Part shown: positions 10,776 to 14,256 of the stretch, in pieces
Numbering within the stretch: position 1 is the first letter of the stretch
Layout of the letters: each line of letters starts with the position of its first letter
Assembly (NCBI RefSeq): GCF_003334315.1
Contig: NZ_QOWR01000003.1
Source: Escherichia coli
GTDB taxonomy: Bacteria > Pseudomonadota > Gammaproteobacteria > Enterobacterales > Enterobacteriaceae
Reading direction: 5' to 3' (one strand)
DNA length: 64,000 nucleotides
Position numbers and translations under genes: made by a program
Notes under the pieces: model-generated
The model's input: the letters and a program-made list of their open reading frames with translations, nothing else
Told to the model about the DNA's origin: nothing
The model's database searches: none

Positions 10776-10785
10776 TTATGAAAAT

Positions 10786-10810
10786 GCCGGGATTTATTCC
10801 CGGCATTTCT
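10786..10810 (+). terminator. Rho-independent terminator of tsx
   Basis: GCCGGGA-TTTAT-TCCCGGC hairpin followed by ATTTCT, 11 nt after the tsx stop. Confidence 0.6.
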
Positions 10811-10848
10811 GATTGTTAACAACGTGTGCTTTGTTCATGCCGGATGCG

Positions 10849-10936
10849 GCGTAAACGCTTTGTCCGGCCAACAAAAGCACGTAAATTCAATATATTGCTG
10901 AAATAACGTAGGCCTGATAAGCGTAGCGCATCAGGC
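10849..10936. repeat. BIME (two REP units)
   Basis: GCCGGATGCGGCGTAAACGC...TGTCCGGCC and GTAGGCCTGATAAGCGTAGCGCATCAGGC. Confidence 0.7.
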
Positions 10937-10951
10937 AATTTTACGTTTTAA

Positions 10952-11299
10952 TCACTTCTTCTTGTTCATCATCGCTTTCAGGTCAGCGAATGGGTTGTAC
11001 TTCGCTTCACCGACATCTTTCTGCGCATCTTCCCCTGCGATAACGGTCGTACCATACTGATCCGCTTCGGTATATTTCGAATGCTCATGATCGTGGCAAT
11101 AGAGACACAACAATTCCCAGTTACTGCCATCTTCCGGGTTATTGGTATGGTCGTGATCAATGTGGTGAACGGTAAGTTCACGCAGGTTGGAATAAACAAA
11201 CTCGCGGGAACAGCGACCGCAGACCCACGGATAGATTTTTAATGCTTTTTCGCGATAGCCGCTTTCTAACCGCGCATAGTTTTTTGGGATGATAGCCAT
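10952..11299 (-). CDS. yajD: HNH-motif small protein YajD
   Basis: 115-aa ORF MAIIPKNYARLESGYREKALKIYPWVCGRCSREF...HHIDHDHTNN...CLYCHDHEH (Cys pairs plus His-Me finger-like motif). Confidence 0.9.
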   Translation of the reverse strand: MAIIPKNYARLESGYREKALKIYPWVCGRCSREFVYSNLRELTVHHIDHDHTNNPEDGSNWELLCLYCHDHEHSKYTEADQYGTTVIAGEDAQKDVGEAKYNPFADLKAMMNKKK

Positions 11300-11374
11300 G
11301 AAAAGTTACCTGGATGAAATGTAGGGTTACGCGCAGTTTCCCAAGATGCGGGGATTTTCGCAATCTCCATACAT

Positions 11375-11405
11375 CAAAAAAATCCCGATCTTCTGACCGG
11401 GATTT
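11375..11405 (-). terminator. Rho-independent terminator after secF
   Basis: Minus-strand hairpin AAATCCCGGTCAGAAGATCGGGATTT followed by T7 run. Confidence 0.6.
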
Positions 11406-11426
11406 TCAACATCAACGGGAACTTGA

Positions 11427-12398
11427 TTACGGCAGAATTGACGGCTGATCCGCCCCTTCTTTTTCCACTTTCTGCTGCAACATGTGTTCGCGCTTCATAC
11501 CCAGTTTCAGAGCCAACGCAGATGCCACATAGATGGAAGATGCAGTACCGATGGAAACACCGATAAGCATGGTCAGCGAGAAGCCTTCCAGTACCGGACC
11601 ACCGAAGAGGTACAGCATCAGGATAACCATCAAGGTAGTACCGGATGTGATCAAGGTACGGTGCAGCGTCTGGGTCAAGGACACGTTAAAGATTTCGTAA
11701 GGCGTACCGCGACGGATCTTGCGGAAGTTTTCACGAATACGGTCCGATACCACGATACTGTCGTTAAGCGAGTAACCGATAACCGACATCAACGATGCCA
11801 CAATGGTCAGGTCAATCTCGATATGGAATAACGACAAAATACCCAGCGTAATGATAACGTCGTGCGCCAGCGCAATAACCACCCCTGCCGCCAGTCGCCA
11901 CTCAAAGCGGAAACCTACGTACACGAGGATAGACAGCAGCGCTGCCATCAACGCCATCGCACCGGTTTGCGCAAGGTCTGCCCCCACGCTCGGACCGACG
12001 AACTCAATACGCTTCACTGCTGCATTCTGATTGGTGGATTCGTTAATCACCTTCAGAACCTGGCTGCCCAACACCTGACCGCCGGTTTCGCCTTCAGCAG
12101 GCGGCATACGGACCATGATGTCATGGCTGCTACCAAAGTTTTGCAGCATCGGCTCTTCAAAACCGGCTTTTTGCAATGCATCACGCATTACGTCAATTTC
12201 AGCCGGTTTTTCGAGCGTAATTTCAATAACCGTACCACCGGTGAAATCCAGCCCCCAGTTAAAGCCGCGCACGCCCATAATAACGATAGCAGCGATTAAC
12301 AGCAGACCAGAGATGCCGAAAGCCCAGTAGTCCCAGCGCATAAAGTCATAGACTTTACGGCCGTGGTTTAGTTGTTCAACAGTATATTCCTGTGCCAC
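11427..12398 (-). CDS. secF: Protein translocase subunit SecF
   Basis: ORF track 11427..12443 trimmed to in-frame GTG at 12396-12398 ([20 protein letters not shown]...) preceded by GAGGAG Shine-Dalgarno; 323 aa. Confidence 0.93.
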
Positions 12399-12408
12399 AT
12401 CGCACTCC

Positions 12409-14256
12409 TCAGATTGACAGCTTCTTGACGCGCTTGCCGCCATATAGCAGGTTTACGATGGCACGCGTACCGACAATCGCGGTAAACATCGACGTCGCCA
12501 CACCGATACCGGTAGTAATCGCGAACCCTTTAATTGCCCCGGTACCCACTGCGTACAGGATGATGACTTTAATCAGCGTGGTGATGTTCGCATCGAAGAT
12601 AGAACTGAATGCGCCACGATAACCTTCATCAATTGCCTGTTGAACAGTACGTCCGTTGCTCAACTCTTCTTTAATACGTTCGTTGATCAGTACGTTCGCA
12701 TCGACCGCCACCGCAAGGGTTAAGACGATACCCGCGATACCTGGCATACTCAGCGTTGCGCCTGGCAACAGCGACATAATGCCGACGATTAAGATCAAGT
12801 TGGCAATCAGAGCACTGGTCGCAATCAGACCAAACTTCTTATAGAAGATGATCATGAACAGAATAGAAACCAGCAGACCGGCAAGGCAAGCCTCCAGCCC
12901 CTGTTCAATGTTCTGCATACCCAGGGTTGGGCCAATGGTACGTTCTTCAACAATCTGAATCGGCGCGATCAACGCACCGGCACGCAGCAGCAGTGACAGC
13001 TGACGGGCTTCGTTCGGGTTGTTGATGCCGGTGATACGGAAGCTGTTACCCAGACGAGACTGGATGTTGGCGATGTTAATCACCTCTTCCTGTTTCACCA
13101 GAACCGCACGACCATTTGCATCTTTCTTACCGCTGTCTTTGTACTCCACAAACAGGGTTGCCATCGGTTTGCCGATGTTGTCCTTAGTGAAGTTAGACAT
13201 GATGTTACCACCAGCGCTATCGAGCGAGATGTTAACCTGCGGTTGGTTGTATTCGTCCTGGCTGGAAGTGGAGTCGGTGATATGGTCACCGGTCAGAATT
13301 ACGCGTTTGTACAGCACAACTGGCTGACCTTCGCGGGTCTGTTTCACTTCAGAGTCGCCCGGTACGCGACCGGATGCCGCAGCGGCCTGGTCAACGTTGG
13401 TGTTTACCAGACGGAATTCCAGCGTTGCCGTCGCACCCAGAATCTCTTTCGCACGCGCAGTGTCCTGAATACCTGGCAGTTCAACAACGATACGGTCAGC
13501 ACCCTGACGCTGAACCACCGGCTCCGCCACGCCAAGTTGGTTTACACGGTTACGCAGGATATTAATGTTCTGCTGCACCGCATATTCACGCGCTTCACTC
13601 AGACGAGCATCGCTCATTACCGCACGCAGCTGGTTGCTGCCCTGGCTGCTAATCACCAGGTCCGGATGGCGCTTGCTCAGATACGCAATGGCTTCATCAC
13701 GAGCTTTAGCATCGCGGAAAGTGATGCTCAGGCCGTAGTTGTTTTCTTTACGAACAGTGGTATACGGGATGCCCTTTTCGCGCAGGTCACTGCGTAGGCT
13801 ATCGATATTTTGTTCCTGGAGTTTGCCAAGCGCGGTGTCCATATCCACTTCCATCAGGAAGTGAACGCCGCCACGCAGGTCAAGGCCGAGCTTCATCGGC
13901 TCAGCGTGAATAGCTGCCAGCCAGCGCGGCGTTGCCGGGGCAAGGTTAAGCGCCACGACGTATTTGTCACCCATAACGCCCATTAATGCTTCACGAGCGC
14001 GCAACTGGGTGTCAGTGGAGTCGAAGCGCGCAAGAATAGCGCCCTCTTCCAGTGCCACAGACTTAGCAGTTATTTTTTCTTCTTGTAACGTTTTCTGGAC
14101 CTGGATCAGCGTTTGCTCACTGGCGGCGACTCCGCGCGCACCAGTGATCTGAACAGCCGGATCCTCACCAAACAGGTTGGGAAGCGCATACAGCAGACCG
14201 ATGACAATCACCACGATCAGCATGACGTACTTCCACAAAGGATAACGGTTTAACAC
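12409..14256 (-). CDS. secD: Protein translocase subunit SecD
   Basis: 615-aa [34 protein letters not shown]... Confidence 0.97.

Follow-up and report, generated by a model that had tools for sequence, protein, structure and literature searches.

Proteins that offer points of comparison for a small HNH nuclease are of several kinds: the minimal nicking HNH enzymes of Geobacter (Gme HNH, PDB 4H9D) and of the phage GVE2 (PDB 5H0O), the HNH domain of McrA of Escherichia coli (PDB 6GHC), the HNH domain of human ZRANB3 (PDB 5MKW), T4 endonuclease VII (PDB 1E7D/1EN7), and the Legionella adaptor DotN/IcmJ (PDB 5X1H). The closest described system is the YajD family (NF008448/PRK11295), of which E. 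coli YajD is itself a full-length member without any difference. Here we describe yajD in a stretch of E. coli DNA of 64,000 nucleotides (nt) from contig NZ_QOWR01000003.1 (hereafter the window). The searchable literature holds no experimentally defined activity for the family, and the remark of a first-pass annotation of the same DNA, made from the letters alone, that substrate and role are largely uncharacterized holds there.

YajD is among the most conserved uncharacterized proteins of Gammaproteobacteria, with a complete nuclease active site and no single-mutant phenotype reported. We consider it probable (about 0.6) that it is a metal-dependent HNH nuclease that lacks a targeting domain and is recruited by way of the C-terminal peptide. 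Identifying once more a gene that is already annotated changes nothing by itself; a motif in the C-terminal tail and the pairing of yajD with arfB in some bacteria give specific leads for experiments.

Gene identity and predicted fold

The open reading frame (ORF) at 10952–11299 of the window, on the minus strand, which the first-pass annotation left unstated, has 115 codons with an ATG start and a TGA stop (10952–10954, within these coordinates). It is the sole long ORF of its frame in that interval and its translation is MAIIPKNYARLESGYREKALKIYPWVCGRCSREFVYSNLRELTVHHIDHDHTNNPEDGSNWELLCLYCHDHEHSKYTEADQYGTTVIAGEDAQKDVGEAKYNPFADLKAMMNKKK. The product is a 100% match to RefSeq "HNH nuclease YajD" (WP_000974813.1), and at the DNA level many complete E. 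coli chromosomes match the region with 100% identity and carry the gene under the annotation yajD. The NCBIfam model NF008448 ("YajD family HNH nuclease") matches residues 2–113 over model positions 2–113 of 113 with 210.3 bits (cutoff 87). The name YajD and the length of 115 residues, as first proposed, are thus correct. The ORF is a genuine gene and not a chance ORF, because it has these profile matches together with 100% identity to annotated copies, a nearly universal presence in E. coli, at least 594 relatives and a low ratio of nonsynonymous to synonymous substitution rates (dN/dS). It is also an already annotated and already known core gene of E. coli.

The search against HNH profiles that the first-pass annotation had suggested as a check of its HNH/His-Me-finger assignment gives Pfam PF01844 (HNH) with E = 1.5e-12 and 47.9 bits, residues 27–75 covering the entire model (positions 1–47 of 47). 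The AlphaFold model, with 56 diverse homologs as input, has an N-terminal helix (8–22) ahead of two strands (42–46 and 61–65) and a helix (66–82), that is, a ββα-metal topology; the fold assignment is a prediction, with predicted local distance difference test (pLDDT) scores of 82–90 in the core (residues 20–75) and low confidence over the last 35 residues. All the motifs quoted at first pass are present: C27-G-R-C30, C65-L-Y-C68-H69, and H45-H-I-D-H-D-H-T-N-N54. The last had been called characteristic of HNH nucleases. The HH pair, the Asn, and CxxCH..EH form the generic HNH signature, whereas the loop D-H-D-H-x-N-N-P-x-D-G-S-N-W-E is specific to the YajD family (in E. coli, D48-H-D-H-T-N-N-P-E-D-G-S-N-W-E62). 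From the sequence, C27, C30, C65, and C68 are the predicted zinc ligands, and H45, H46, N60, H69, and H73 the candidate catalytic residues. The catalytic His (H46, at the end of strand 1), the structural Asn (N60), and H69 and H73 of the helix are present and 90%–100% conserved in the family. Domain fusions offered no clue to function: ten long YajD homologs carry no second recognizable domain.

Conservation and selection

Of 5426 complete E. coli genomes, 5425 carry the gene once and only once. A scan with one genome per species confirmed relatives at no fewer than 594 places, and among 1.8 billion representatives the family forms 640 clusters at 50% identity (E ≤ 1e-3), with a range that reaches at least as far as Myxococcota. 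Among 56 homologs with identities as low as 39%, L42, H46, N54, G58, W61, L64, C65, C68, and H73 are invariant, and H45, D48, H51, P55, D57, S59, N60, E62, H69, and E72 are conserved at 90% or more. The same picture for the HNH residues is found in 121 homologs below 70% identity. Across the family, the generic HNH set (HH, N, CxxCH, and H) and the four zinc cysteines are intact.

Against 15 orthologs of Enterobacterales, dN/dS is ∼0.02 overall, 0.009 in the core, and highest (0.10) in the linker that follows the HNH domain; these values are approximate, since dS is saturated among the orthologs. The gene is under very strong purifying selection.

A conserved peptide at the C terminus

Behind a linker that differs in length and sequence between homologs, the family proteins close with a motif T-[HY]-x-P-F-[AEG]-x-L-x-x-[LM]-[LM]-K-K, which in E. 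coli reads Y101-N-P-F-A-D-L-K-A-M-M-N-K-K-K115. Of 322 family proteins whose C-terminal sequence is long enough, 253 have the motif, in most cases with its end 4 residues from the C terminus; many of the motif-negative proteins look truncated or frameshifted, or bear near variants that fall outside the pattern. Within the tail, conservation in the 56 homologs reaches 90% or more at F104 and L107.

We know of no annotation for this C-terminal peptide. To judge by its sequence, it looks like a docking-type motif, because it is a short conserved peptide carried by a flexible linker in a protein without a targeting domain. As identities of the tail, a β-clamp-binding motif and a C-terminal peptide of the FtsZ type were considered, and neither was adopted; the residues depart from the bacterial clamp motif QL[SD]LF. 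The tail motif is a new lead, near-universal in the family.

A possible mode of action

In the nuclease reading that we prefer, C27, C30, C65, and C68 would hold a structural zinc that pins the helix against both strands. The likely general base would be H46, where strand 1 ends, with N60 bracing the loop, and H45, H69, and H73 would be positioned to bind the catalytic divalent metal. YajD would then cleave a phosphodiester bond, most probably as a nickase that, like other minimal HNH proteins, cuts a single strand of its nucleic acid. The tail, P-F-A-D-L-K-x-M/L-M/L-K-K on its flexible linker, may dock the enzyme to a partner or surface that supplies the specificity.

By analogy with the family, where it is the default, the substrate would be DNA. 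In Salmonella, the yajD cbpA and yajD ychN double mutants are sensitive to H2O2, which is the sole phenotype on record, and the yajD single mutant is without phenotype (PMC3878590). The sensitivity of the double mutants weakly fits a role in DNA damage.

Pairing with arfB and RNA helicase neighbors

We examined 89 non-enteric yajD loci for neighbors by stop-to-stop ORF clustering. In a Chromatiales-like branch (L003), yajD overlaps by 4 nt a gene of 148 residues with an RF-1 domain. That neighbor is ArfB by its NCBIfam equivalog (176–195 bits vs. a cutoff of 100). ArfB is an alternative ribosome-rescue peptidyl-tRNA hydrolase. The YajDs paired with arfB belong to at least five separate lineages, their nearest relatives are unpaired, and both gene orders occur, always on the same strand (Table 1). 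Genes for DEAD-box RNA helicases (RhlE1, RhlE-like, and DbpA) directly flank yajD homologs in five loci, three of them convergent, one co-directional, and one divergent. Besides arfB and the DEAD-box helicases, no other specific recurrent neighbor was found in the 89 loci. Adjacency to one given single-copy gene is expected by chance in ∼0.03–0.1 loci of the sample, and the association between yajD and arfB is therefore unlikely to be accidental. Recurrent operon-like yajD–arfB pairs are thus a new lead from non-enteric bacteria.

These neighborhoods suggest a role in translation quality control, with YajD as an RNA-directed, ribosome-associated endonuclease cutting mRNA on or near stalled ribosomes. 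The cuts would supply ArfB with truncated-mRNA complexes to release, and the tail would dock on the ribosome or on a rescue factor. The presence of arfB as the only specific recurrent neighbor and the flanking helicase genes speak for such a role. On the other hand, none of the 80 genome loci (Enterobacterales, Vibrionales, and Alteromonadales), E. coli included, shows the pairing, and in the metagenomes arfB lies within 3 kb of yajD in only 4 of 80 loci. The three convergent helicase genes are not co-transcribed with yajD, and DEAD-box genes are multi-copy. The searchable literature contains no paper that connects an HNH protein or YajD with ArfB. In addition, every characterized PF01844 enzyme known to us cuts DNA. 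With these points against it, we regard a role in translation as unlikely, although worth keeping in view.

In its most specific form, YajD would be the missing endonuclease of ribosome rescue or RNA surveillance, docked through its tail, cutting mRNA at stalled ribosomes, and feeding ArfB. That form would explain the tight same-strand pairs of yajD and arfB (sometimes with rhlE) in the five or more lineages, but we hold it to be a long shot. Were it true, YajD would give the HNH family its first nuclease whose physiological role concerns RNA or the ribosome.

Less probable readings: adaptor or mobile element

The HNH fold could also be no more than a protein-binding scaffold, as in DotN/IcmJ, a secretion-system adaptor of 200 residues, in which case YajD would be a catalytically silent zinc-binding adaptor. 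A pure scaffold is expected to retain the four cysteines only, whereas H45, H46, N60, H69, and H73 are invariant or nearly so in distant homologs and dN/dS in the core is 0.009. Unlike DotN, YajD keeps all the catalytic histidines under strong constraint, and for this reason a silent adaptor appears improbable.

The surroundings of yajD were compared in 80 species loci (Enterobacterales, Vibrionales, Alteromonadales, and a few others). The placement of the gene just after secDF, as described at first pass, is true of E. coli, but the adjacency is not conserved across the family: the secDF neighborhood is kept only in Escherichia, Pseudocitrobacter, and Kluyvera, and a conserved secDF–yajD or tsx–yajD unit was rejected on this ground. 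No neighbor family has a consistent position beside yajD in the 80 loci; one generic family, ABC-type ATPase-like by its opening residues, occurs in 17 of them at variable distance. As a rule yajD is solitary, separated from the genes on either side by median gaps of 146 and 112 nt. From genus to genus it has a different chromosomal site, and the DNA similarity ends at the start and stop codons, without common flanks or repeats. In Enterobacter asburiae (L009:5167–7933), yajD adjoins ORFs that, by a look at their sequence, resemble paaY/paaX/paaK of phenylacetate catabolism. In Pantoea, the gene is carried by large plasmids of 160–930 kb (61 records; hits H31–H36), and it is likewise plasmid-borne in some other genera. 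Despite the lost synteny, the proteins of E. asburiae and Pantoea are 93%–96% identical to that of E. coli.

In a single lineage (L100:798–4285), the gene of a DEAD/Helicase_C/MZB helicase (TIGR03817-like, below the cutoff) lies in convergent orientation to that of a YajD homolog, followed by a gene with an RNase_H_2 domain. The arrangement resembles the MrfA/MrfB repair pair.

The changing sites, the abrupt ends of similarity, and the plasmid copies might point to a selfish or defensive HNH element (a free-standing homing endonuclease, a phage remnant, or an anti-phage effector), as might weak domain-level matches to the defense protein ZorE (E = 4e-7), phage HNH families, and IscB (20 bits vs. 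a cutoff of 175). The PADLOC and IscB matches are, however, limited to the HNH core and lie far below the family level, and the PHROGs matches also cover the core only. No full-length relative of YajD was found in 50,697 phage records or in IMG/VR, the best match in a phage record having 51% coverage and 51% identity. No defense partner genes lie near yajD. The E. coli copies are always annotated yajD, and the very strong purifying selection with saturated synonymous divergence agrees with a long vertical descent. Similarity that breaks off at the ORF ends, a single copy per E. coli genome, and the lack of phage copies led to the rejection of a mobile cassette. A place among phage or homing HNH enzymes was likewise rejected (single copy, no full-length phage relative), as were the defense HNH effectors ZorE, Cap5, and retron HNH (the ZorE match spans the HNH core only) and the RNA-guided IscB/Cas9 nucleases (the neighbors in E. 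coli being tsx and secF). Since copy number, distribution, and selection contradict it, a selfish or defensive origin is very improbable; yajD behaves as a housekeeping gene that has been moved about and not as a mobile or defense element.

The yajD locus in E. coli

In the window, yajD is flanked by tsx (convergent) and by secF (upstream, same strand), within the block queA–tgt–yajC–secD–secF–yajD. The stop codon of secF (TAA, 11427–11429) is separated from yajD by 127 nt. This spacer contains a G + C-rich hairpin of 13 base pairs (bp) at 11378–11407 followed by seven U, the shape of an intrinsic terminator. A simple terminator scanner missed the hairpin, which was recovered by RNA folding: the minus-strand RNA 11300–11430 folds with –40.1 kcal/mol (z = –3.3). 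The hairpin and the length of the spacer bear out the first-pass description of a gene standing after the secDF terminator with its own spacer. No σ70 promoter was found in the 127 nt at the threshold of the scanner, and by eye there are weak candidates only.

Downstream, the hairpin between tsx and yajD (11–12 bp) is a terminator-like site of the scanner on the plus strand (10782–10808). It also folds on the minus strand, where it is followed by UUUUCAU, and runs of U/T are found on both strands. Between tsx and yajD are also two palindromes of the repetitive extragenic palindromic (REP) type that form a pair like a bacterial interspersed mosaic element (BIME); a query that took in this flank gave matches scattered over E. 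coli genomes at >120,000 places, and the Rfam matches to naRNA4 and ES036 are sub-threshold. In vitro work has validated a terminator of yajD (PMC12207403), for which the tsx/yajD hairpin and a REP hairpin are candidates. The gene is transcribed according to RNET-seq, with a NusG-suppressed pause site (PMC10268239).

Two further observations concern reading frames at the locus. The secF ORF (window 11427–12443, minus strand) opens 45 nt before the start used in the annotation and so has 338 instead of 323 residues; the longer form overlaps the end of secD, and RefSeq keeps the shorter one. In several database clusters of E. coli contig origin (P0076, P0089, and P0090), the first 70–85 residues of YajD are joined to a +1-frame ORF ending in ...SQGKMRRKMSVKRSTTHSLT (window 10978–11199, minus strand), as frameshifted yajD alleles or sequencing errors.

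Table 1. Coordinates of the features of yajD in the window and of arfB and helicase genes at yajD loci of other bacteria (L numbers)
Feature	Position	Strand	Basis or spacing
yajD coding sequence	10952..11299	-	ORF, RefSeq identity, NCBIfam equivalog 210 bits
HNH (ββα-metal) domain, residues 27–75, including loop D48–E62	11075..11221	-	Pfam, AlphaFold, conservation
N-terminal helix, residues 8–23; conserved Y15, R16, L20, K21, then P24, W25	11231..11278	-	Predicted helix, conservation
Variable linker, residues 76–100, probably disordered	11000..11074	-	pLDDT 54–72, dN/dS, length variation
C-terminal peptide motif, residues 101–115	10955..10999	-	Family alignment
Likely ribosome-binding site AGGT, 8 nt before ATG	11308..11311	-	Sequence reading, inference
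secF intrinsic terminator, 13-bp stem 11378–11407 and U run	11371..11407	-	RNA fold
Hairpin common to convergent tsx (+) and yajD (-), candidate bidirectional terminator	10781..10809	both strands	
Two REP-type palindromes, yajD 3′ untranslated region	10839–10868 and 10912–10936	.	Stable hairpins, z = –6.2
yajD then arfB	L003:6001–6842	same strand	4-nt overlap
yajD then arfB	L097:3501–4350	same strand	22 nt
yajD then arfB	L176:2986–3819	same strand	3 nt
arfB then yajD	L132:2481–3375	same strand	79 nt
arfB then yajD	L134:2475–3402	same strand	82 nt
arfB–rhlE–yajD	L129:1169–3366	same strand	Gaps 27 and 14 nt
DEAD-box helicase genes	L126:2199–3671; L171:3430–4854; L155:3453–3881; L129:1625–2977; L052:4505–5647		

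Comparison with known nucleases

The solved folds nearest to the YajD model are the HNH domains of ZRANB3, GVE2, McrA, and Cas9. The two minimal nicking enzymes, Gme HNH and the phage protein GVE2 HNH, share only 18%–19% identity with YajD, and neither was matched from YajD at the sequence level in the PDB. Both are without the DHDHxNNPxDGSNWE loop and the PFADL..LLKK tail. McrA carries a large N-terminal targeting domain that reads modified DNA, whereas YajD has none. ZRANB3 is a eukaryotic fork-remodeling enzyme of 1079 residues, and the parallel with it is a lead and not a test.

In the PDB search (single sequence and profile), the best relative of YajD at the sequence level is T4 endonuclease VII (E = 0.008), the other matches being spurious C2H2 zinc fingers. 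Membership in the recombination endonuclease VII family itself (Pfam PF02945) was rejected (E = 3, 8.3 bits). The motifs H-x-D-H-D-H and C-x-x-C-(N/H)-x-x-E of the T4 enzyme and of YajD align residue for residue, at H46, D48, H49, H51, C65, C68, H69, and E72 of YajD.
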